From assembly GCA_030016715.1 (NCBI GenBank), contig JASEJD010000002.1:147179-179178 (forward strand): 32,000 nucleotides of DNA. The letters run 5' to 3'. The DNA comes from Methanobacteriaceae archaeon (GTDB lineage Archaea > Methanobacteriota > Methanobacteria > Methanobacteriales > Methanobacteriaceae). A program made the position numbers and the translations under genes. Shown piece after piece: positions 1 through 10,459 of this stretch (the first letter of the stretch is position 1; every line of letters starts with the position of its first letter). The notes under the pieces were generated by a model. That model was given only the letters and a program-made list of their open reading frames with translations. It was not told the origin of the DNA and did no database searches.

Positions 1-23
1 TGATAATAATATTTCATTAATAA

Positions 24-93
24 TTGTTTTATATCAAAAAAAGAGTTTTTAAACAACTTTTTTCATAAAATTAAACCACAATCTTTATATATA
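24..93 (+). promoter_or_regulatory. Conserved promoter cassette, copy 1 (TGTTTTATAT, A-run-GAG...T-run, AAAATTAAACCACAAT, TATA box TTTATATATA at 84..93)
   Basis: Nearly the same about 70-nt string recurs at 1378..1449. The 16-mer AAAATTAAACCACAAT is identical at 67..82 and 1423..1438. TTTATATA matches the methanogen TATA-box consensus. It lies about 124 nt upstream of the proposed start at 208. Confidence 0.6.
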
Positions 94-207
94 GTTTTAT
101 TATGATTCATTGATAGTTCAAAAGTAAGTCAAAAGCGTAAATAATAGAAAAATAAATATTCTATTTTTTTACATAAGTTCTTACTCTTGAATATTGGAGG
201 CGGTATA

Positions 208-876
208 ATTAAGCGACACTCGATATTTGCATTGCTATTTGCTTTAGGCATAGCAATGCTTGCTATTCCATCCTCTGTTGGGGTTATGGATAGTGTGAAT
301 AATCAAGAAAACGCAAAAATAGAATTAGATAATAAAGAAATACAACAAGTAAGTGCAGCAACTTATAAAAAAGTCTACTATAAAAAATACTATAAAAAAT
401 GGTATAAATCTGGAGGGCGCTGGAGATACTACTGGATGTCTTATTGGACCTACAAATATGTGAAAACTTCAAACAGTGTAAGTGCTACCAGAACTTCATC
501 TTCAACTACCTATAAGACTAGTTCTTCTAGTTCAGAATCTGTATCAACTGATGGTTTAAGTTCAACAGCTAGTTATATAAACCAGAATTTTAATCACCGT
601 TCAGGAGCTTCTACCACTGCAGCAGGTGTTCGGAGAACTGGTTATGGAGATTGCTGGGGATTAGCAGATTTAGCAGCACAGGAATTGAATAAAAAAGGAT
701 ACACAGTACGCGTAGTTCAAGGTGCAAGCAGAGGATCTCCTAGACATAGATGGGTACAGTATAAATCAGGTAGTAGTTGGAAAACCTTTGAATCGACCAT
801 GGTTACCAAAAGATATGGTTCCAAACATTATTCCTACGCCATAGCTACAGCAAGAACAATAATTAAATATTATTAA
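208..876 (+). CDS. Secreted paralog 1: signal peptide + Trp/Tyr/Lys/Arg-rich module + Ser/Thr linker + minimal transglutaminase-like (Cys-His-Glu) domain
   Basis: ORF track gives 187..876, but the TTG at 187 lies upstream of the SD GGAGG (196..200). I place the start at ATT 208 (GGAGGCGGT-ATA-ATT). The signal peptide is IKRH + SIFALLFALGIAMLAI + PSSVG. The module YKKVYYKKYYKKWYKSGGRWRYYWMSYWTYKYVK is at nt 364..465. The C-terminal GYGDCWGLADL (Cys codon 652..654), RHRWVQY and WKTFEST align without gaps to the canonical TGase core of the 2824..5172 protein. Confidence 0.85.
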   Translation: MKRHSIFALLFALGIAMLAIPSSVGVMDSVNNQENAKIELDNKEIQQVSAATYKKVYYKKYYKKWYKSGGRWRYYWMSYWTYKYVKTSNSVSATRTSSSTTYKTSSSSSESVSTDGLSSTASYINQNFNHRSGASTTAAGVRRTGYGDCWGLADLAAQELNKKGYTVRVVQGASRGSPRHRWVQYKSGSSWKTFESTMVTKRYGSKHYSYAIATARTIIKYY

Positions 877-1377
877 ATTGAATTTGGCCATTGTAATCAG
901 ATATTACCAAATATAATTTGCTAAATAAAAATCAGTGATTAACTAATTTTTAATTTTTTTTCTTAATTTCTTTAAGACTTTTAAAATGTATTAAAAATTA
1001 TTTTTAACTATTAAAATGTTATTTTTTAATCCTTTTAAAGGATTATAACACTTTTTTTGAATTAAAATTTGTTTTAATAAAATATATCCCTATAATAATT
1101 AATATATACATGAATCTATAATTTTATACAAGGCATTATTAGAATAGTACAATTTAAATTCTTTGATAAAGGTTTAAATTAATAAAATCAGCAATCATAT
1201 TCTTTTTTTTTGAATTTTAGGTTTATTTTAGAGAAATTTTTAATTAAAGATAGATCATTATCTTGAATCAGATATTAAATGATGATTCTAGTAAATATAA
1301 AAGGTTATAATTTTTCAATAGAGAAAATCAGCCATAATCTGCAGATTTTCTCATGATGATGATATAATCTCATTTTT

Positions 1378-1449
1378 AAATGTTTTATATTCTAAAAAGA
1401 GTTTTAAAACAGCCTTTTTTTCAAAATTAAACCACAATATTTATATATA
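1378..1449 (+). promoter_or_regulatory. Conserved promoter cassette, copy 2 (TATA box TTTATATATA at 1440..1449)
   Basis: Near-identical to 24..93. It lies about 140 nt upstream of the proposed ATT start at 1580. Confidence 0.6.
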
Positions 1450-1579
1450 ATCAGTTTATGATTAGAGTTATTGTTCGGAAATAGGACTTGAGAGAAATAA
1501 ATAAACCTGGAGAAAAAATTTATAAAGTAATTTACCAAGGTTTATTATTGGTCCTTGATTTGAATATGGAGGCGGTATA

Positions 1580-2284
1580 ATTAAGCGACACTCGATATTC
1601 GCATTACTATTTGCTTTCAGCATGGTAATGCTTTCAGTTCCATCTGCTATTGCAGGTATGGACATACAAAATGTAAATGAAAATAATGTTATTAAAGTAG
1701 AACAAAACAATATTCAAAAAGTTGATGCAGCGACTTATAGAAAAGTAGCTACAAAAAAATATTACAAAAAATGGTACAGATCTGGTGGAAAATGGAGATA
1801 CTTCTGGAAATCATACTGGACATATAAGTATGTAAAAACCAGTTCCAACAGTGTCAGTGCTACTAGCAGTTACAGTACAACTTCAAACACTTACCAGAAT
1901 GAAGACCAGAATGAAGATGATAAAGAAAAAGATTCTGGCGATTACTCAACAAGCACTAGTGGTTTGAATTCTGTAGCCAAATATATTAACAGAAACTATA
2001 ATCATCGTCCGGGTGCAGCTCACACTGCAGAGGGCGTACGCAGAACAGGTTATGGAGATTGCTGGGGATTAGCCGACCTGGCAGCTCGTGAATTAAATAA
2101 AAAAGGTTACAAAGTACGTGTAGTACAAGGTCCTAGCAGAGATTCATCAAGACATAGATGGGTACAATTTTTGGCTAATGGGAAATGGAATACCTTTGAA
2201 TCCACAATGGTTACTAAAAGATTTGGTTCCAGACACTATTCATACGCTATAGGAAAACTTAGAACAGTAATCAAGTATTACTAA
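1580..2284 (+). CDS. Secreted paralog 2: signal peptide + Trp/Tyr/Lys/Arg-rich module + acidic/Ser-rich linker + minimal transglutaminase-like domain
   Basis: ORF track gives 1622..2284, starting at the first ATG. The frame is open back to the TAA at 1523 and encodes IKRHSIFALLFAFS upstream of that ATG. That stretch is homologous to the paralog 1 signal peptide. The 32 nt at 1568..1599 are identical to 196..227. The module YRKVATKKYYKKWYRSGGKWRYFWKSYWTYKYVK is at nt 1736..1837. GYGDCWGLADL, RHRWVQF and WNTFEST are present. Confidence 0.85.
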   Translation: MKRHSIFALLFAFSMVMLSVPSAIAGMDIQNVNENNVIKVEQNNIQKVDAATYRKVATKKYYKKWYRSGGKWRYFWKSYWTYKYVKTSSNSVSATSSYSTTSNTYQNEDQNEDDKEKDSGDYSTSTSGLNSVAKYINRNYNHRPGAAHTAEGVRRTGYGDCWGLADLAARELNKKGYKVRVVQGPSRDSSRHRWVQFLANGKWNTFESTMVTKRFGSRHYSYAIGKLRTVIKYY

Positions 2285-2298
2285 GAATCGGGTATAAT

Positions 2299-2329
2299 AA
2301 GAGATAAATACTCTCTTACATTTTTTTTT
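2299..2329 (+). terminator. Hairpin plus T9 terminator after paralog 2
   Basis: AAGAGA (2299..2304) pairs with TCTCTT (2312..2317) around a 7-nt loop. A T9 run follows at 2321..2329, starting 15 nt after the stop codon. Confidence 0.5.
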
Positions 2330-2640
2330 ATTTGAATACTAAAACTATTTTTTATCTACTATCTAATTGAAAACTAAAATTTGTTCTAATTTTAATAATT
2401 TGAATTATGATGTGTTAATACATTATTTATGGTTCTTTTAAACTTTTAATATTCATATAAGCTTGTTTTTAATATTTATTGATTGATTAAAGATGATTTT
2501 GGATTTTAATTAACCATACTTATTCTAATTGTTATCATTATAACTATTTTTATAGAATGGGCTTTTCATTGGTTCTTATTCATAAAAATAAGCCATTATA
2601 GACATACTATTACTTTTTATAAATATTATTTCTTTAAATA

Positions 2641-2710
2641 ATGTTTTAATTCAATTAAAAGGTTCTAAGAGAGCTTTTTTTGGAAAAATAAATAGAAATA
2701 TTTATATATT
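2641..2710 (+). promoter_or_regulatory. Conserved promoter cassette, copy 3 (TATA box TTTATATATT at 2701..2710)
   Basis: Shares ATGTTTTAAT, the AAAAGG...GAGAGCTTTTTTT block and the TATA box with copies 1 and 2, but is more diverged. It lies about 123 nt upstream of the proposed ATT start at 2824. Confidence 0.5.
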
Positions 2711-2823
2711 ATCCTTTAATAGTTACATATGTTGTTCAAAAGTAGTAAAAAAGCCCAAAATTTGAAAATTTTTCAATAGGTTCAAGGGGTAATTTCTACA
2801 TTTTTGAACAAGGAGGCGGTAAA

Positions 2824-5172
2824 ATTACGCGAGAAAAAATTTTCGTGGCATTGATATTATTCAGCATTTTAGTTACATGTTCTATAGCTGATGTTAATGC
2901 TAGCGAAGACTATACTACTTTGGAAAATAGAACAAACCATATCAACGACTTCAAAGATTCAGAAGACAATCTCTCATTTAATACAACTATCTCAGAAGAA
3001 GATGAATTAGAAATACTAGAAGATACAAATAATGAAACAACTCTGAACAACAATAACCAACATGATACTTCATATGAATGCGAAGAATGCAATGATAACT
3101 GTTCCGATTATTATTTAGCAGCAGCAGGAGATACTTATGATAATGTCCAAGCTATTTGGATTCAAGCTGCTGATGTGGCAAAACTTAATGCAAATGAACT
3201 AATCAACATGGGCATAACCGACGTATTTGTTCTATGTAAAAGATTTTCAAGCCCTTATTACAGCGAAGTACTTCCACAAGTACTGGCTAAACTTCAAGGC
3301 ACAAATATTCGAGTTCATGCATGGGTTGTTTGCTTTAAAGATGCTTCTGGTAAATGGGTTGATCCTCAAAGCAGTGAAGGTACTCCTACTGTAACCCAAG
3401 TTTTAGTACCTTACTATGAAACGGTTAGAGTTCCAGTTAGAAAATCATATCAAACTACTGAAAAAGTATGGTACAAATCATGGTATAGAGCCGGACGTTA
3501 CAAACAATGGTACAAGACAAGATATAAGATATGGTATAGATCACGAGGACGCTGGTTATATCGTTGGGCAAATAGATGGCGTTACCGTTGGGCTTATAGA
3601 TGGAGATATACATGGAAATATTACAATAGAACCGTGACCAAATACTATACTGCCTATGAGAATCAACAACAGTTAAAATACAAATACGTGACACAAACAA
3701 CGCCCAGTGAACTGACCTACCAACAAGAAATCATTGATTACATCTCAAAACTAGTGAATGACTATGAGATCAATGGGGTGCATCTGGATTATGTTAGATA
3801 TTCTGGAGTCGGAGAGAATGCTGCTTACAAACATAACGGTGATGAAGTAATAACAAACTTTGTTAAAGACGTTTATAATTCAGTTAAATCAATTAAAGCC
3901 AAAGTCGCAGTTTCTGCAGCACTAATGCCGGAATGTGGAGTAAATGCTTATTATTATGGGCAGGATTATGAAAAATTAGCTCCTTATCTAGACTTCATGG
4001 TACCTATGATTTACAAAGGAAACTACAATAAAGATACAGCATGGATAGGAGCCACCACTCAGTATATTGTAAATAAAGCCAACGGAACTCCTGTTATTGC
4101 AGGATTACAAACCTATGTTTCTGATTCAAATATTCAACCAATTCCAGCCTCAGAACTGGAAGGTGATATTGAAGCAGCAATAAGCAATGGTTCCTCGGGT
4201 TATGCATTGTTTAGATACGGTTTAATCGTAAACAATAATTATTCCACTGAAACAGCTAGTGTAACTGTTCAACAAGTACTAACAGCATCCACTAATCTAA
4301 AAAACTATGTTATATCCAATAAAAAACTACCAAACACAATCCAAGTAGGAACATATACTATAAACACTGCACAATTCCTACAAATATTATTAAATACCGT
4401 TGTTCAATTAGATCAAGGCAAATTTGATCCAATACCAGTTAAAACAGTTGGAACAGCACCAAATCCAACGGGACAGAATATTTATGGAAACATAATGCTT
4501 TCAGAATACATTAACAATGCAAAAAATATTCTAAAATTCATCGAAACTAATGGAAGAGCACCAAACTATTCAATTACATCACTAGGAAACTTAAACTACG
4601 AATACTTAGTTTTCAGTTATGCAAAAATCTTAGACTTCTATAAAGTTAATAATCGACTACCAAATTACGCTATTATTCAAACATCCGACATGATATTGTC
4701 TAATCAACAATCTAGTATACCTGCAGAATTACAAGCATTTCTCATGCCAACAGCCAACTGCCAATCAAATAATTCAGTTATTATAAACCTTGCTAATCAA
4801 ATTACTAACGGCTTAACATCAGAATACGACAAAGCAAAGGCTTTATTTGAATGGGTTAGGGATAAATGTAGCTATACTTTCTACTACAATACTAAGTACG
4901 GTGCAGTAAATATGGCCACCAGGAGGAATGGAAACTGTATTGATCAAGCTCACCTATTAAATGCTTTAGCTAGATCATTAGGCATTCCTGCTAGGTATGC
5001 TCATGCACAATGTGAGTTTACTACTATGACGGTTGGACATATTTGGTCGGAACTGTATGTTAATGGACAGTGGATAACTGCGGATCCTACAAGTTCTAGA
5101 AACACCTTTGGAACACAAAACAACTGTAAGATATTATACTGGAAGGGACGATACGCCGAATTACCTTTCTAA
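2824..5172 (+). CDS. Large secreted multidomain paralog 3: signal peptide, acidic Asn-rich region, GH-like TIM barrel (GHL10/DUF4015-like) interrupted by a Trp/Tyr/Arg array, 2 pseudomurein-binding repeats, C-terminal transglutaminase-like Cys-His-Asp core
   Basis: ORF track gives 2845..5172 with a GTG start. The conserved GGAGGCGGT-AAA-ATT block places a candidate start at 2824.
- GH-like cues: VHAWVVCF, GVHLDYVRY and FMVPMIYKGNY.
- PMBR-like segments lie at about 4261..4410 (LKNYVISNKKLPNTIQVGTYTINTAQFLQIL) and about 4495..4680 (AKNILKFIETNGRAPNY...FYKVNNRLPNY).
- TGase core: NGNCIDQAHLLNALARSLGIPARY (Cys codon 4936..4938) and GHIWSELYVNGQWITADPT. Confidence 0.9.
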   Translation: MTREKIFVALILFSILVTCSIADVNASEDYTTLENRTNHINDFKDSEDNLSFNTTISEEDELEILEDTNNETTLNNNNQHDTSYECEECNDNCSDYYLAAAGDTYDNVQAIWIQAADVAKLNANELINMGITDVFVLCKRFSSPYYSEVLPQVLAKLQGTNIRVHAWVVCFKDASGKWVDPQSSEGTPTVTQVLVPYYETVRVPVRKSYQTTEKVWYKSWYRAGRYKQWYKTRYKIWYRSRGRWLYRWANRWRYRWAYRWRYTWKYYNRTVTKYYTAYENQQQLKYKYVTQTTPSELTYQQEIIDYISKLVNDYEINGVHLDYVRYSGVGENAAYKHNGDEVITNFVKDVYNSVKSIKAKVAVSAALMPECGVNAYYYGQDYEKLAPYLDFMVPMIYKGNYNKDTAWIGATTQYIVNKANGTPVIAGLQTYVSDSNIQPIPASELEGDIEAAISNGSSGYALFRYGLIVNNNYSTETASVTVQQVLTASTNLKNYVISNKKLPNTIQVGTYTINTAQFLQILLNTVVQLDQGKFDPIPVKTVGTAPNPTGQNIYGNIMLSEYINNAKNILKFIETNGRAPNYSITSLGNLNYEYLVFSYAKILDFYKVNNRLPNYAIIQTSDMILSNQQSSIPAELQAFLMPTANCQSNNSVIINLANQITNGLTSEYDKAKALFEWVRDKCSYTFYYNTKYGAVNMATRRNGNCIDQAHLLNALARSLGIPARYAHAQCEFTTMTVGHIWSELYVNGQWITADPTSSRNTFGTQNNCKILYWKGRYAELPF
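3553..3624 (+). repeat. Six tandem tetrapeptide units with Trp every 4th residue (WLYR WANR WRYR WAYR WRYT WKYY), coding repeat inside paralog 3
   Basis: Direct reading of codons 3553..3624 shows TGG at 3553, 3565, 3577, 3589, 3601 and 3613. This is part of a wider aromatic/basic insert at 3469..3690. Confidence 0.9.
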
Positions 5173-5357
5173 AATTTTTTCTTTTTTATTTTTTCTCAAG
5201 CAAGAATTTTTAATATATTAAGCAGTCATTTAAATTTTAAAGTAATTAAAAAAAATATTAATTATAACTTATAAGTGTTACAGTTATAACTTATCAGTAA
5301 ATTACATAAAAAAAACTTGAAACAAGATTTATTGAATAAGAATATTTTTAAGGATAA

Positions 5358-6479
5358 TTAATATAACTTCTTTTGGTAGGAACCATCGAATTTTACAAAG
5401 GTTTCGGCCCTTTTAATTACCACTCCTAATTTTTTAAGATCCTCTAATTTTTTAAAAATGAATCCTCCTCTTTTCCGGGAAATTATTCTCTGGGCAGATA
5501 TTTTCCCGATCCCCGGGACACGTATGAGCTCTTTAAAAGATGCTGAGTTAATTTCAACTGGAAAATCTTCAGGATTATTGAGGGCCATTATGTATTTAGG
5601 ATCTTCATCCAGTTCCAAGTTTCCATCCTCATTGAATATTATTTCATCTAATTCAAAGCCATAATAATTAAGTAATGAATCCGCCTGATAAAGTCTAGGA
5701 GATCTTTTAGGATGCGGCTTAGATCGAGATTCTAGAGGTGTTTCTTTTAATGGTTGGAATTGACTAAAATAACTTCTTTTGGTTCCGAAATTATTAGAAA
5801 GCCATTGAACTCTTCTTAAAATTTCTTCATCAGATTCATTATTTGCACCCACAATAAACTGAGTGGTTTGTCCTGAAGGTGCAAATCCTGGATTCTTTTT
5901 AGATATTCTTTTTATCCATTTCATTCTCCTTAAAATATCAATATTATAATCTTTTGTAGATGTCAATTCTTGAAATCCGTCTGCAGTGGCTGCTTCAATA
6001 TTTATACTCACTCTATTTGACAGACTCATCGCCCTTTTGATCATATCATAAGAGGAACCTGGAAGGATTTTAAGATGGATATATCCCTTATATCCATGAT
6101 TCACTCTCAATAATCGGGTTACTTCAATCATTCTCTCCATAGTACTATCAATATTTCTGCAAACACCAGAACTTAAAAAAAGACCATCCACCAATTTATT
6201 ATGATAATAATCCAAAAATATATTTGTAAGTTCTAAAGGAGAATATTCAACTCGAGAAAATTTTCTTTTACTATGATTCACACAATATTTACAGTCATTG
6301 TTACATTTATTGCTCATTAAAACTTTAAAAAGAGGTATTGAACATCCACTGGAAGAAGTGGCATAATATATTCCTGGAATCTCACTATTTTTCAAACTCT
6401 CTACACTAGGTGTTACATAGTTACATAGATCGTATTGTGCTGAATCACTTAAAATTTTTAATTTATTCCTACTATTCAT
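5358..6479 (-). CDS. Radical SAM protein with C-terminal helix-hairpin-helix (putative DNA modification/repair radical SAM family, TIGR03916-like)
   Basis: The CX3CX2C motif is CNNDCKYC. The N-terminal LSDSAQYDLC...SSSGCS is typical of that family as I recall it. The C-terminal LIRVPGIGKISAQRII is an HhH motif. No SPASM-type Cys cluster is present. Confidence 0.75.
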   Translation of the reverse strand: MNSRNKLKILSDSAQYDLCNYVTPSVESLKNSEIPGIYYATSSSGCSIPLFKVLMSNKCNNDCKYCVNHSKRKFSRVEYSPLELTNIFLDYYHNKLVDGLFLSSGVCRNIDSTMERMIEVTRLLRVNHGYKGYIHLKILPGSSYDMIKRAMSLSNRVSINIEAATADGFQELTSTKDYNIDILRRMKWIKRISKKNPGFAPSGQTTQFIVGANNESDEEILRRVQWLSNNFGTKRSYFSQFQPLKETPLESRSKPHPKRSPRLYQADSLLNYYGFELDEIIFNEDGNLELDEDPKYIMALNNPEDFPVEINSASFKELIRVPGIGKISAQRIISRKRGGFIFKKLEDLKKLGVVIKRAETFVKFDGSYQKKLY

Positions 6480-6884
6480 CAGTTATTATTTATTTTTTTT
6501 AATAATAATTATTTTATGTTTATCTTTAATGACAATCATATCCCCCTCTTACTAATAATCGACATTTTTGAATTTATATTACTATTAATAAACTTTACAT
6601 GCTTTTTAATTAGTGAAAATGATTAAATACCTCTGAAATTATTCAAACATAGTTTACTCCTTAACATGTAAAAAAACCAAATATAATGGAACATATTAAT
6701 TATATTCTAATTGCCTTTTTATAGAATATTCTATTTTTAAAAGTCTAGATTAAGTAAATAATGAATTAAAAAGCTTTATTAAGTAAAAATCGTCTTAATC
6801 CATAACTTGATTATTGAAATTCATTATGAAGAATATAATGGACTTAACTTTCTTTTATAAAACATATTAAACAGTTTAAACTTA

Positions 6885-6950
6885 AAAATAAGCTATATCA
6901 AGGCTTTTTTTTGAAAATAAAATAAAAAGATTTAAATAAGATTTATAAAT
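6885..6950 (+). promoter_or_regulatory. Promoter cassette, copy 4 (diverged; TATA-like ATTTATAAAT at 6941..6950)
   Basis: AAAAATAAGCTATATCAAGGCTTTTTTTT resembles the A-run/T-run element of copies 1-3. The TATA-like box lies about 70 nt upstream of the ATT at 7012, so the leader is shorter than in copies 1-3. Confidence 0.4.
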
Positions 6951-7011
6951 TACAATTAATAGTCTAAAAACTACCAATTAAATTTTTAAAGCAAGATTTG
7001 GAGGCGGTAGA

Positions 7012-7806
7012 ATTAAAAGACACTCACTATTTGCATTATTACTAGCTTTAGGCATAATAATGTTTGCATTTCCATCCTCTTTGGGAGGATTGGAATCTGA
7101 AAATGCTAATAATGTTATTAGTATAGATAAAAATGATATGCAGAAAATTAATGCATCTACCTATAAAAAGGTATACTATAAGAAGTGGTATAAATCAGGT
7201 GGGCGCTGGAAATATTACTGGAAATATAAATATGTAAAAATATCCAGCACCGTCAAATCTCCAAGTAAAACCTCTAATACTTCTAATTATAAAACTAGTT
7301 CAACTGATTCTAATAAAACAACTACAACAAAATATAAGAAAGTACGCTACAAGCAATATTATAAACAGTGGTATAAATCAAAGGGGCGCTGGAAATATTA
7401 TTTGAAATATCGCTGGGCAATAAAATATGTTAAATTAACATCTAAAACAGCAAGCACCGTAAAAAGCACCGTAAATAACACCCCTGATCCCTCTAACAAA
7501 TATGGAGCACGCGATGTAAAAGTAACAGAAAATTATGTTCAATGTTCTGGCAGATGTACTTGTAGTCTATATGAAGATTATGATTATCACACATCTAAAT
7601 TTGTCAACTATTGTCCTTACTGCCATAAAAAAGGACTACTGGATTATGAAGAAGGAACCGTGGTAAGTAGCAGTGGAAAGGTTTACAATAATCCTGAGGG
7701 TATGTGGGTTTGCAGTACCAAAAAAGGTGGATGTGATGCAGATTTCTGTCTAGTACATGGTAAAGCCCATGTTACTACTGGTGCAAAGTATTTAACCCCG
7801 GCTTGA
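7012..7806 (+). CDS. Secreted paralog 4: signal peptide + two copies of the Trp/Tyr/Lys/Arg module + C-terminal 8-Cys (putative Zn-ribbon-like) domain
   Basis: ORF track gives 7060..7806. The frame is open back to the TAA at 6979 with no ATG, GTG or TTG. It encodes IKRHSLFALLLALGII upstream of the first ATG. Modules lie at nt 7162..7239 (YKKVYYKKWYKSGGRWKYYWKYKYVK) and 7333..7434 (YKKVRYKQYYKQWYKSKGRWKYYLKYRWAIKYVK). The Cys-rich tail runs from about 7501. Confidence 0.85.
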   Translation: MKRHSLFALLLALGIIMFAFPSSLGGLESENANNVISIDKNDMQKINASTYKKVYYKKWYKSGGRWKYYWKYKYVKISSTVKSPSKTSNTSNYKTSSTDSNKTTTTKYKKVRYKQYYKQWYKSKGRWKYYLKYRWAIKYVKLTSKTASTVKSTVNNTPDPSNKYGARDVKVTENYVQCSGRCTCSLYEDYDYHTSKFVNYCPYCHKKGLLDYEEGTVVSSSGKVYNNPEGMWVCSTKKGGCDADFCLVHGKAHVTTGAKYLTPA

Positions 7807-8599: not shown

Positions 8600-10459
8600 A
8601 TGAATAAGAAACATTTTATCGCACTTTCCTTTATATTTTTACTTACATTCTCCCTTTTATCTAGCACGGCCGTAGCACAGGATGATGAAGACCGCAGCTA
8701 CACCATTCCCTACGCTAATATAGACCTCTACCTGCAAGAAAACGGTAATTTACATGTAAAAGAAAAGCTTCATTACTCCTTTTCAGGCACATATAATGGA
8801 GTTTATAGGGATATACCACTTAAAACAGGTCAAAGAATAGAAAATATCCAAATAAACACGGATGGAGCTTATTATACTCTTGAAGTTATTGATCAGGGGG
8901 ATATGAAAAGATTAAAAATTTATTTATATTCTAATCCCCAGAAAACAGTGCCAATAACTGATAGGGATGTTGATGTTTATATTGAATATGATTTTATTAA
9001 TGTTATCAAAATCTACAATGATGTTGCCGAACTTCAATACAAACTTTGGGGTGAAAACTGGGAAGTGGATGTAGGTCAAGTAACAACAAATATTCATTTA
9101 AAATCTAATGAAGGAGTTAAATACTGGTTAAATCCCCCATATTTTGTAAAAAATGATAATTGGAATAATAATATTTTAAAAATAGAATCTACTTCTATTT
9201 CTCCAGGGAATTGGTTCGAAGTAAGAATGGCCATACCCAAGGATCAATTTCAAAGTAATCCTGTATTTGCTCAAGTAATTAATAGTGATGGATTACCAGA
9301 TATGGAAAAAATCCAACAGGACTATGAGAACCAATTAAATTTTAAAACAATTTTATACTCAATTTTGTCAGTATTAATGCTTCTTAGTATATTTGCACCG
9401 TTAATTCTCTACTTTAAATTTGGCAAAGAACCTAAAATTAGTTACATGGCAGAATATGAAAGAGATCTTCCAACTGATGATCCGCCTGCCGTGGTTAACG
9501 CCATATCTGGGAAAGGATTTGCCAAGAGAGTTGGCGAACCTGATATGGATGGATTTAGGGCCACCATGATGGATCTTATAAATCGCAAATATATTTTAAT
9601 TCAGAATATTCCTAGGCAAGTGAAAGATAAAGAAGAAACTGGATCTAATAAGTTTTCATCTGTTAAAGAGATGAAAGAAGGATCATTATCCTTAAAAATT
9701 AATGATAAAATGAAAATATCAGAACTAAATGATTTTGAACAAGATGTAATATATTTCCTTCGTAAGTTTTCAGAAAAAGGTGTGGTTAATCTTGAAAAAC
9801 TAAAAAATGATTTAAAAGATAAAAACAGGGCACTATCATTTAAGATTTCATACAATAATTGGAAAGATCATCTTAAGAACCAATTTTTAGATGAATCAAC
9901 CATGGAAAAGATTTTTATTAGAAAAGGGGATAAATATCTCAAGATTTTCGGATTATTAGGCATAATTTTAGCGGGAGTTACATTCTTTTTTACTTTATCA
10001 GATCCCTTACCTGCTGCCAGATATGTTTTGATATCATCAATTGTATTGGGCATAGTGGCCATAATATCAATAATAATGCCTCAAAAAATAGCGGGGCGTT
10101 GGACTGATTATGGAGCAGAATTTGATGCAAAATGGATAAATTTCAAGAAGTATATAATGGACTTCAGCTTAATTAAAGAGTATCCTCCAGAATCTATAGC
10201 TGTGTGGAACAAATATTTGGTATATGCAACTGCACTAGGAATAGCAGATAAAGTTAGAAAATCTATGGAAATGACCCTACCTCGAGATGAACTTGAAAAT
10301 AGTAATCTATATCTTTTCCATTACTATGGAGGTTATATGGTTTTATCCTCAACCTTAGACTCTGGATTGTCCAAAGCCACGAGTGAAGATTCTGATGGCA
10401 TGGGCGGAGTAGGTGGAGTAGGTGGAGGTTCTGGAGGTGGTGGTGGAGGAGCATTTTAA
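8600..10459 (+). CDS. DUF2207-type membrane protein (signal peptide, extracytoplasmic domain, TM helices, Gly-rich C-tail)
   Basis: ORF track starts at GTG 8591, but that GTG is part of the SD AGGTGA (8589..8594). The ATG at 8600 follows after 5 nt. The architecture and the GGVGGVGGGSGGGGGGAF tail are typical of DUF2207 proteins, which commonly follow lemA. Confidence 0.8.
   Translation: MNKKHFIALSFIFLLTFSLLSSTAVAQDDEDRSYTIPYANIDLYLQENGNLHVKEKLHYSFSGTYNGVYRDIPLKTGQRIENIQINTDGAYYTLEVIDQGDMKRLKIYLYSNPQKTVPITDRDVDVYIEYDFINVIKIYNDVAELQYKLWGENWEVDVGQVTTNIHLKSNEGVKYWLNPPYFVKNDNWNNNILKIESTSISPGNWFEVRMAIPKDQFQSNPVFAQVINSDGLPDMEKIQQDYENQLNFKTILYSILSVLMLLSIFAPLILYFKFGKEPKISYMAEYERDLPTDDPPAVVNAISGKGFAKRVGEPDMDGFRATMMDLINRKYILIQNIPRQVKDKEETGSNKFSSVKEMKEGSLSLKINDKMKISELNDFEQDVIYFLRKFSEKGVVNLEKLKNDLKDKNRALSFKISYNNWKDHLKNQFLDESTMEKIFIRKGDKYLKIFGLLGIILAGVTFFFTLSDPLPAARYVLISSIVLGIVAIISIIMPQKIAGRWTDYGAEFDAKWINFKKYIMDFSLIKEYPPESIAVWNKYLVYATALGIADKVRKSMEMTLPRDELENSNLYLFHYYGGYMVLSSTLDSGLSKATSEDSDGMGGVGGVGGGSGGGGGGAF

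Follow-up and report, generated by a model that had tools for sequence, protein, structure and literature searches.

A length-variable Lys/Trp/Tyr β-hairpin module of exported Methanobacteriaceae proteins and its possible role in retention on the cell envelope

Little is known of how proteins are retained on the surface of pseudomurein-walled methanogens. The PMBR domain (PF09373), the only pseudomurein-binding domain covered in a 2011 review (PMC3210951), is a non-catalytic unit of secreted Methanobacteriales wall enzymes and surface proteins; its binding to pseudomurein has been shown experimentally, and its copy number matters for function, three PMB motifs being the experimentally determined minimum for binding (PMC3124540, PMC3210951). 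Choline-binding repeats (PF01473, CW_binding_1) likewise hold secreted enzymes non-covalently on a Gram-positive wall polymer, using aromatic-rich β-hairpins with Gly-containing turns (GWxK-x-GkWYY) and cation–π chemistry. Here we describe, in 32,000 nucleotides (nt) of DNA from a Methanobacteriaceae archaeon (GenBank assembly GCA_030016715.1, contig JASEJD010000002.1, positions 147,179 to 179,178; this whole stretch is called the window and supplies all coordinates), a Lys/Trp/Tyr-rich module shared by four paralogous genes, which is very probably a two-stranded antiparallel β-hairpin of adjustable length. We regard the module as a structurally novel means to a familiar end, namely the targeting of secreted proteins to the surface by a non-catalytic unit. 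Taken whole, the proposition of a hairpin arm that retains proteins on the envelope and probably binds pseudomurein is in our judgement evenly poised.

The four paralogues lie in one orientation at coordinates, borne out by the open reading frame (ORF) listing and by direct reading, that had been given in an earlier note on this DNA. The gene 4 product matches, at 100% identity, NCBI protein QME14_02705 of a Methanobacteriaceae archaeon metagenome-assembled genome (MAG). The genes and their modules, with lengths in amino acids (aa) and AlphaFold confidence as predicted local distance difference test (pLDDT), are as follows.

208..876, + strand: gene 1, 222 aa; predicted signal peptide at about aa 1-25, acidic pre-segment with the IQQVSAAT motif at aa 27-52, hairpin module at aa 53-86, Ser/Thr linker at aa 87-120, and a ~100-aa transglutaminase (TGase)-like Cys-protease core at aa 121-222 (GDCW...HRW...FES).
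364..465, + strand: module of gene 1, YKKVYYKKYYKKWYKS-GG-RWRYYWMSYWTYKYVK; arms 16/16, net charge +11, 44% aromatic.
1580..2284, + strand: gene 2, 234 aa; architecture as gene 1, with the TGase-like head at aa 133-234.
1736..1837, + strand: module of gene 2; arms 16/16, net charge +12.
2824..5172, + strand: gene 3, 782 aa; predicted signal peptide, acidic disordered linker, DUF4015/GHL10-type TIM barrel at about aa 105-465 with the module inserted, PMBR, and a transglutaminase/Pei-like core at aa 655-755 (Pfam, AlphaFold2, Foldseek).
3388..3702, + strand: expanded module of gene 3, aa 189-293; net charge +22, turn at R241-G242 (nt 3544-3549).
4285..4686, + strand: PMBR of gene 3, three units at aa 488-621 that make one set.
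7012..7806, + strand: gene 4, 264 aa; predicted signal peptide, module A, Ser/Thr/Asn linker, module B, linker and 8-Cys domain.
7162..7239, + strand: module A of gene 4; arms 12/12, AlphaFold strands E51-62/E65-76, block pLDDT 80-85, turn at G63-G64.
7333..7434, + strand: module B of gene 4; arms 16/16, AlphaFold strands E108-123/E126-141, pLDDT ~84, turn at K124-G125.
7504..7803, + strand: 8-Cys head of gene 4, aa 165-264, ~100 aa; CxC...H...CPYC...C...CDADFC.VHGK.H.

The module limits proposed in the earlier note for genes 1, 2 and 4 coincide exactly with the YKKV...KYVK hairpins, and in gene 4 with the AlphaFold strands. Its picture of gene 3 needs correction on two counts, in that the β-ribbon is wider than the 3469..3690 first assigned to the expanded module, and the two pseudomurein-binding repeats it had counted are three units, which amount to one functional set. 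Repeat finding without prior input recovers the module core at the DNA level in five copies (382, 1754, 3514, 7168 and 7351), and independently recovers the block of Shine-Dalgarno (SD) box, start and signal peptide (195, 1567 and 6999) and the pre-module motif that had been said to be shared, together with the two small TGase-like heads and a duplicated, promoter-like upstream block that the earlier note had not listed. The degenerate core W-Y-(K/R)-x4-W-(K/R)-(Y/F) occurs four times in the window against 0.03 expected.

The module core reads WYK(S/Y)-xG-(R/K)W(K/R)Y with a two-residue turn, and both strands follow a period of four, (W/Y)-Y-K-x outward and W-K-Y-x on the return. In a gapless, core-anchored alignment of 33 non-redundant copies (alignment A3) W17, Y18, W24 and K15 are invariant, and in the flanks, outside the core used for selection, column entropy lies at z = -35 to -38 relative to within-sequence shuffles. 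Lys and Arg make up 32-38% of the module, no window copy contains Cys, and each N-terminal module carries a net charge of +10 to +13, the gene 3 arm one of +22. The features proposed to define the family (the core, the (W/Y)YKx/WKYx repeats, equal arms and an extracytoplasmic Methanobacteriaceae protein) are found together in all five window copies and in more than 60 elsewhere.

AlphaFold2 puts the hairpin turn precisely at the conserved x-G, and in the gene 4 model the Ser/Thr linkers flanking the hairpins fall to pLDDT <50. In gene 3 the strands assigned by DSSP run over aa 189-200, 202-222 and 230-240 outward and over aa 243-253, 256-276 and 282-293 on the return, with two short breaks per arm and a block pLDDT of 57-85. 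A comparison of the YKKV-to-turn and turn-to-KYVK distances, which uses sequence only and is independent of AlphaFold, gives equal arms (12/12, 16/16 or 20/20) in 13 of 13 distinct N-terminal modules. Across 54 distinct barrel insertions, in which the turn follows W(V/I)DP by 27-62 aa and precedes G(I/V)HLDY by 46-79 aa, the outward and return distances rise in lockstep (Spearman 0.986), differ by a constant 19-20 aa in 49 cases and change in steps of about four residues. Equal and lockstep arm lengths mean that insertions and deletions always affect both arms jointly; evolution changes arm length by one four-residue repeat gained or lost on both strands together.

With a two-residue turn, 52% of cross-strand pairs in the resulting register set Lys or Arg against an aromatic residue, 13% are aromatic–aromatic and 1% like-charge, and every shifted register is worse (16-46% cation–aromatic, 8-24% like-charge). 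These Lys/Arg and Trp/Tyr neighbours would amount to a cation–π zipper. The alignment and register place K:W and W:Y pairs on one face and Y:K and variable pairs on the other, describing an arm that appears to have no hydrophobic core, one face being Trp-rich and the other Tyr/Lys. Module A of gene 4, with 12 residues per arm, and the gene 3 arm, with about 50, mark the two ends of the length range, and at the ~3.3 Å per residue of an extended strand such arms, fully extended, would measure ~4 to 17 nm. The module sequence is highly repetitive and of low complexity, and only 13 representatives are found by HMMER at E<1e-3, as might be expected of a compositionally biased linker without specific structure or function. 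The earlier note had named this as a way in which it could fail; homologues show positions conserved in register, and that conservation with its four invariant residues, the equal arms and lockstep lengths, the unique favourable register and the confident hairpins beside truly disordered Ser/Thr linkers effectively exclude such a reading.

We found no named family for the module, in line with the earlier note: Pfam and NCBIfam at E<=1 place none over it in the window proteins or in carriers from other genomes, a profile search of all PDB sequences gave nothing meaningful, and it is not mentioned in the literature on pseudomurein binding, Methanobacteriales adhesin-like proteins or pseudomurein biosynthesis. 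When four exact module strings were sought in the literature, one matched, a synthetic antimicrobial peptide (KWYKKWYKKWYK). PMBR occupies equivalent architectural places, before the 8-Cys head or beside DUF4015/TGase domains, but is unrelated in sequence; PF09373 matches occur only in gene 3, none lies over the modules of genes 1, 2, 3 (aa 189-293) or 4, and the gene 3 PMBR region (aa 488-621) is modelled as mixed α/β whereas the module is a single long β-hairpin. Choline-binding repeats, which give no PF01473 match to the module at E<=1, are arrays of ~20-residue hairpins stacked into a solenoid whose aromatic cages bind a cationic ligand, in contrast to the module's single turn, four-residue period and cations on the protein itself. 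The KxYKxGKxW motif of Gram-positive serine-rich glycoproteins (TIGR03715, no NCBIfam match at E<=1) resembles the core K-W-Y-K-S-G-G-R-W superficially and is also followed by a Ser-rich region, but it sits in the n-region before the hydrophobic core, while the module starts at aa 51-53, beyond the signal-peptide hydrophobic core (aa 5-22), and elsewhere is C-terminal or within barrels.

Peptides offer the nearest structural likenesses. Tachyplesin, protegrin, arenicin and the (KWYK)n peptides share the cationic–aromatic amphipathic composition, and cationic hairpin peptides have affinity for anionic membranes and for polysaccharides; natural antimicrobial hairpins are, however, short (17-25 aa) and locked by one or two disulfides, whereas the module, Cys-free and far longer, is built into larger enzymes as a domain and is not a free peptide. 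Designed tryptophan zippers (trpzip) and Lys–Trp hairpins share the two-residue NG/GG-type turn, the cross-strand aromatic or cation–π pairs and the lack of a hydrophobic core. Trpzip peptides are synthetic, of 12-16 residues and built on cross-strand Trp–Trp pairs by a tight turn, unlike the natural module, with its 12 to ~50 residues per arm and a preponderance of cation–aromatic over aromatic–aromatic pairs.

The long arm of gene 3 gives the module its most informative context. Pfam identifies DUF4015 (29.5 bits, cut-off 27) and PMBR (50.9 bits in three stretches, the best at aa 555-582), and jackhmmer places the PMBR units at aa 488-529, 566-595 and 601-621. The AlphaFold2 model (mean pLDDT 77.6) has as its top Foldseek match PeiP (8z4f, 1e-10), the C-terminal domain also matching the TGase-like Cys protease 3isr; the barrel matches the peptidoglycan hydrolase Cwp19 (5oq2, 5e-9) and the C-terminal poly-N-acetylglucosamine hydrolase domain of PgaB (4p7q, 5e-9), and pyruvate kinases are also among the Foldseek matches. 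Profile and Foldseek results together assign the barrel to the DUF4015/GHL10 TIM barrels. In the model the arm appears to be an all-β ribbon inserted after strand β3 (aa 163-169) and ahead of helix α3 (aa 299-313), on the catalytic (C-terminal) side of the barrel. The B domain of pyruvate kinase occupies the same β3–α3 loop, and other TIM-barrel enzymes have inserted domains such as carbohydrate-binding modules, but the gene 3 insert is a ribbon of two strands and no globular β-barrel or β-sandwich.

The DUF4015–PMBR–TGase architecture recurs in 566 homologues. Among the best 121 of these, 51 have the arm and 70 a short loop in its place, and the number of PMBR units differs sharply between them, being three in 48 of the 51 arm-bearing proteins and mostly 5-11 in the 70 arm-less ones (Mann-Whitney p = 9e-21), a single PMBR set against two or more. 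On a neighbour-joining (NJ) tree of the module-free parts, arm presence requires at least 10 state changes, and in all five pure sister-clade contrasts the arm-bearing clade has fewer PMBR units, which speaks against the artefact of a single event, the tree being rough. This recurrent trade-off is the best available, if indirect, argument that the arm does a PMBR-like job. The acidic gene 3 linker (net -19), considered as a charge balance for the +22 arm, was rejected in that role, as its charge is the same with or without the module (p = 0.98). The gene 3 family joins a Cwp19/PgaB-like, glycosidase-type barrel to a Pei-like domain and PMBR (P0030-P0149), some members carrying up to 11 PMBR units. 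Given that the 2011 review knew of no enzyme cleaving the pseudomurein glycan, and of two phage Pei enzymes as the only lytic activities (PMC3210951), this family is an obvious candidate for that cleavage.

The module extends well beyond the window. A HMMER pass over 1.84 billion representative proteins gave the 13 representatives mentioned above, and a profile search of a word-indexed database of 5.8 billion proteins one match, low-complexity words probably defeating the index. When a degenerate DNA pattern was run against GTDB genomes, one for each species, and the hits were checked by translation, at least 118 loci and at least 42 ORFs with a genuine in-frame module emerged; the remaining loci, about two-thirds, are out-of-frame chance matches in bacteria. 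The 42 ORFs listed come from Methanobacterium, Methanobacteriaceae, unclassified Methanobacteriota/Euryarchaeota MAGs, one Methanothermobacter MAG and one MAG labelled Methanomicrobiales, and named cluster members are "hypothetical proteins" of Methanobacteriaceae or Methanobacteriales. Genuine copies among the matches listed belong to the order Methanobacteriales, mostly to Methanobacterium. Among 2.9 million viral contigs there were 37 pattern matches, all of them by chance, and no genuine module. The MAG labelled 'Methanomicrobiales archaeon E05-015' (GCA_049975245.1) has a syntenic cluster, PMBR proteins and at least eight module genes (L013, L030, L063, L090, L102 and P0004); its label is probably wrong and the organism more likely one of the Methanobacteriaceae, because the syntenic cluster is present.

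Modules are joined to no fewer than 10 different partner domains and may be N-terminal, internal or C-terminal. N-terminal modules lead through a Ser/Thr linker to a TGase-like core (genes 1 and 2, L004, L116), an 8-Cys head (gene 4, L026) or an AstE/AspA-type Zn-carboxypeptidase-like head (L063). Barrel insertions occur in DUF4015/GHL10 proteins either with PMBR and TGase domains, as in gene 3, or with the barrel alone (L052, L066), and end in ...YKYETRTGY. In the C-terminal cassette a CHB_HEX_C_1/Fn3_assoc domain precedes one to three modules and a tail ...ETRWG...VLT-COOH, following subtilase S8, CARDB, polysaccharide deacetylase with Big_5, PMBR with an unknown domain, PKD, NosD/β-helix or Chlamydia-PMP-type repeats. 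C-terminal copies always stand directly after CHB_HEX_C_1/Fn3_assoc, with the tail ETRWGxxxVLT-COOH (L051, L053, L055, L070, L073, L080, L110; P0151-P0157); this cassette looks composite, and its last strand may dock back on the preceding domain. The partners are of types usual in extracytoplasmic wall-active enzymes or adhesin-like proteins, and signal-like N-terminal sequences are visible in those module-protein translations that are complete at the N-terminus. The common module with swappable heads, seen by the earlier note in the window, is also found outside it on many other heads, in barrels and at C-termini; to that picture our analysis adds that the module is not confined to N-termini, may co-occur with PMBR and is a β-hairpin, not a mere motif.

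Two other functions call for mention. Tandem copies are common, two in gene 4 and P0006 and two to three in C-terminal cassettes, the Trp-rich face of a single-layer ribbon is likely to favour face-to-face pairing, and quantised lengths suggest a ruler or stalk, all of which could be expected if the aromatic faces of ribbons zip together to give oligomers or a rigid stalk or spacer of defined length, with attachment to an envelope polymer at most secondary. Single-copy proteins such as those of genes 1 and 2 are also common, a like-charge density of +10 to +22 disfavours pairing without a polyanion, and the link to PMBR number would be left unexplained, so that we regard self-association as improbable. 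The constant N-terminal part and swappable C-terminal heads of the cluster, several of them Pei-like and the 8-Cys head with a relative in a viral tail-region protein, also recall polymorphic toxins, in which case a cationic wall- or membrane-seeking arm would deliver variable lytic or toxic heads against competing methanogens. We give such antagonistic lysins very little weight: no immunity-like small ORFs were found beside or between the four genes, their order is conserved between two genomes, and the module is carried, in several copies per genome, by large adhesin-like proteins and housekeeping-type wall enzymes as well.

The heads themselves are largely as first described. Transglut_core (PF01841) matches gene 3 at 87 bits, gene 2 at 25.5 and gene 1 at 19.4, the last under the 23-bit cut-off; the gene 1 head is 77% identical to that of gene 2 at the DNA level, and the GDCW of the TGase-like heads aligns with the calpain catalytic Cys motif. 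Profile and catalytic residues together assign the heads of genes 1-3 to the transglutaminase-like cores, gene 1 with its profile score below cut-off; a Peptidase_C71 match in gene 3 is also sub-threshold (20.8 against 22 bits). These heads may be either hydrolases or cross-linking enzymes. TGase folds in three of the four window genes, the Lys/Arg content of the module and the proposal that exported TGases are the pseudomurein cross-linkers that form Glu–Lys bonds (PMC11915815) raise the idea that Lys ε-amino groups of the arm are themselves cross-linked by TGase-type enzymes to pseudomurein Glu, a sortase-like outcome reached by different chemistry. Such covalent anchoring seems to us most improbable, as many module proteins have no TGase domain, a Lys donor needs neither strict Trp/Tyr conservation nor a hairpin register, and the TGase heads are no closer to cross-linking enzymes than to the hydrolase PeiP.

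No Pfam family matches gene 4, the C-terminus with its eight Cys included; the 8-Cys head has no PDB match, and Foldseek of the gene 4 model against the PDB returns nothing at E<=0.001. In homologues this head is preceded by hairpin modules, as in gene 4, or by PMBR (P0005, P0020). A segment 41% identical to it (BLASTP 3e-13) lies in an 847-aa protein of Methanobrevibacter smithii tailed virus 1 (L157, PP537965.1, 3330-5873), flanked by Sipho_tail (Dit-like) and tail-repeat proteins and 2.4 kb upstream of the viral Pei; the segment is also present in Caudoviricetes sp. vir249 (host Methanobacteriales), and BFVD gives a fold match (A0A6B9JE54, 3e-4). The 8-Cys domain itself, we suggest, may be a wall-interacting unit common to host and virus.

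The cluster as a whole looks like a set of wall-remodelling or wall-interacting proteins sharing one targeting device. The module would be a non-catalytic arm holding Sec-exported proteins on the Methanobacteriaceae cell envelope, a retention role that we consider probable, and would act alongside PMBR or replace extra PMBR sets. In genes 1, 2 and 4 it would tether two minimal TGase/Pei-like Cys-enzyme cores and the 8-Cys domain via flexible Ser/Thr linkers, and in gene 3 it would extend outward on the catalytic side of the Cwp19/PgaB-like barrel, to which PMBR and a Pei-like domain are fused. Binding may be non-covalent, to the anionic, glycan-containing pseudomurein sacculus, where sugars could stack against the aromatic faces and the peptide stems would offer free carboxylates to Lys/Arg, as general chemistry would allow. 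Pseudomurein is put forward as the specific target because the module is limited to pseudomurein-walled Methanobacteriales, is placed where related proteins have PMBR or membrane anchors and goes with fewer PMBR units; we propose it tentatively, since binding shown by experiment for PMBR is for the module something we infer. Of the interpretation offered in the earlier note, modularity, novelty and export hold, while pseudomurein as the target is suggested by architecture.

Several points weigh against this assignment. The evidence for an envelope role is domain architecture and composition, the lineage restriction is that of the matches listed and does not extend to a claim of absence from Methanobrevibacter or Methanosphaera, the independent contrasts come from a rough NJ tree, and AlphaFold inter-domain geometry is unreliable, with a predicted template modelling score (pTM) of 0.39-0.43. 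PMBR and module stand together in single proteins (gene 3; L070, L073, L110), so that each may have a target of its own and neither stand in for the other. A Lys/Trp/Tyr amphipathic peptide also resembles a membrane-interface binder, and the layout of N-terminal module, flexible linker and head a membrane-proximal tether.

The main rival to wall binding is accordingly a membrane-interface anchor, a cationic Trp/Tyr ribbon lying flat on the anionic archaeal membrane and tethering heads via Ser/Thr linkers, functionally analogous to a lipoprotein or C-terminal transmembrane anchor, while PMBR binds the wall. Trp and Tyr generally favour membrane interfaces and Lys/Arg can snorkel; co-occurrence with PMBR in single proteins also favours such an anchor, as does the position of N-terminal copies, ~25 residues past the signal peptide and followed by linkers of 23-46 residues. 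The synthetic antimicrobial 12-mer KWYKKWYKKWYK is described as membrane-active and membrane-disrupting (PMC6943720), and the position taken by C-terminal copies is that of the membrane anchor domains in adhesin-like proteins of Methanobacteriales (10.64898/2026.08.03.742440). That PMBR units are repeatedly fewer where the module is present is nevertheless easier to understand if both bind the same target, the gene 3 arm lies on the catalytic face of a putative wall glycosidase whose active site would then face the membrane, and Lys occurs on both faces of the ribbon, neither of which is cleanly apolar. On balance we consider a membrane anchor unlikely. A bolder version of the wall-binding proposal, which must be called speculative and rather more doubtful, has the ribbon, a natural single-layer cation–π zipper, thread into or span the sacculus; its length, fixed in increments of 4+4 residues and reaching from roughly 4 nm to almost 20 nm when fully extended, would serve as a ruler or probe that sets the depth of hydrolases, cross-linkers and adhesins. 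The module would then belong to a hitherto unrecognised class of archaeal wall-binding devices and form a second pseudomurein-targeting system, with no structural relation to PMBR.

Export of the four proteins, claimed from the outset, depends on where translation starts. As judged from sequence conservation, the shared start codon of the four genes is ATT, which comes 7 nt after the invariant GGAGGCGGT; the string GGAGGCGGTAnAATTA is the same in every one of the four genes and in each of the four orthologues that a second genome carries at locus L001 (corresponding positions 10040, 11549, 12829 and 17044). In genes 2 and 4 an in-frame stop lies 8-11 codons upstream, with no ATG, GTG or TTG ahead of the signal-peptide hydrophobic core. 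ATT is the conserved start candidate because the preceding codon varies (ATA, AAA, AGA); downstream of it synonymous changes accumulate among paralogues and orthologues while the signal-peptide character persists, and homologue P0041, which reads GGSIMKRH, has M (ATG) at the codon occupied by ATT in the window genes. Translation from ATT gives M-K/T-R-..., with two basic residues in aa 1-5, an 18-residue core at aa 5-22 of mean Kyte-Doolittle hydropathy 1.96-2.41, and then SVG, AIA, VNA or LGG. Read in this way, all four would have a Sec-type signal peptide, defined by a basic n-region, a hydrophobic core of 12-20 residues and small residues at -3/-1.

Public gene calls are of two kinds, some (P0001, P0004, P0017) beginning at an internal ATG and so without the signal peptide, others (P0006, P0016) reading through the SD box; gene 4 is annotated as a 248-aa protein (P0001) from an internal ATG, without a signal peptide. 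Secretome predictions for this lineage consequently miss module genes called from an internal ATG. The GGGIIKRHS read-through is also seen in other Methanobacterium surface-protein calls (P0094, P0012). Directly before the N-terminal modules stands (I/M)Q(Q/K)(V/I)-x-A-(A/S) (340-363, 1712-1735, 7138-7161), which persists as V-N-A-A/S in distant homologues; its V-x-A-(A/S) fits the -3/-1 rule yet lies ~25 residues beyond the hydrophobic core, in a region of low AlphaFold confidence, and may be a second processing site.

Upstream of the genes lie related blocks and a common translation start, as follows.

1..107, + strand: gene 1 upstream block, a T-run and then AAAATTAAACCACAAT.TTTATATATA, resembling a B recognition element (BRE) and TATA box (direct repeats and alignment).
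1357..1463, + strand: gene 2 upstream block, 79% identical to the gene 1 copy.
2618..2724, + strand: gene 3 upstream block, 66% identical.
~6860-6940, + strand: gene 4 upstream block, a weaker copy.
196..210 (ATT at 208-210), 1568-1582, 2812-2826 and 7000-7014, + strand: SD box and putative ATT start, invariant GGAGGCGGTAnAATT.

The BRE/TATA-like element lies ~100-125 nt ahead of ATT, which would give leaders of roughly 90-110 nt, and the duplicated blocks are probably promoters; duplication of the promoter-like block along with the genes indicates that whole transcription units were duplicated. The upstream leader blocks match no Rfam family, and the window contains no matches to Rfam families or tRNA genes.

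The cluster is conserved in gene content and order between two genomes. GCA_049975245.1 (locus L001) has the four genes in identical order, together with the interposed opposite-strand radical-SAM gene, LemA and DUF2207; its gene 1 orthologue has two modules and its gene 4 orthologue 20/20 arms, so that copy number and length vary between close relatives. The radical-SAM + HHH protein lies between genes 3 and 4 (5358-6479, - strand), a position kept in L001, and scores 336.9 bits against TIGR03916 (putative DNA modification/repair radical SAM), just under the 343.5-bit cut-off; no functional link to the four module genes is apparent. The window has a G+C content of ~31%, and outside the cluster it looks like any methanogen chromosome, with CobB-like, Mtd-like, HisB and sensor kinase genes among others.

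A second targeting module in pseudomurein-walled methanogens, if true, would mark candidate wall-remodelling enzymes, among them the Cwp19/PgaB-like barrel, Pei-like cores, a deacetylase and peptidases. It would also provide a compact tag (26-34 aa) for display of proteins on methanogen cells or for targeting of lytic enzymes, and so would bear on methane mitigation. For protein design, the module would further be of interest as a naturally occurring case in which Lys–aromatic ladders stabilise very long β-hairpins that lack a core.

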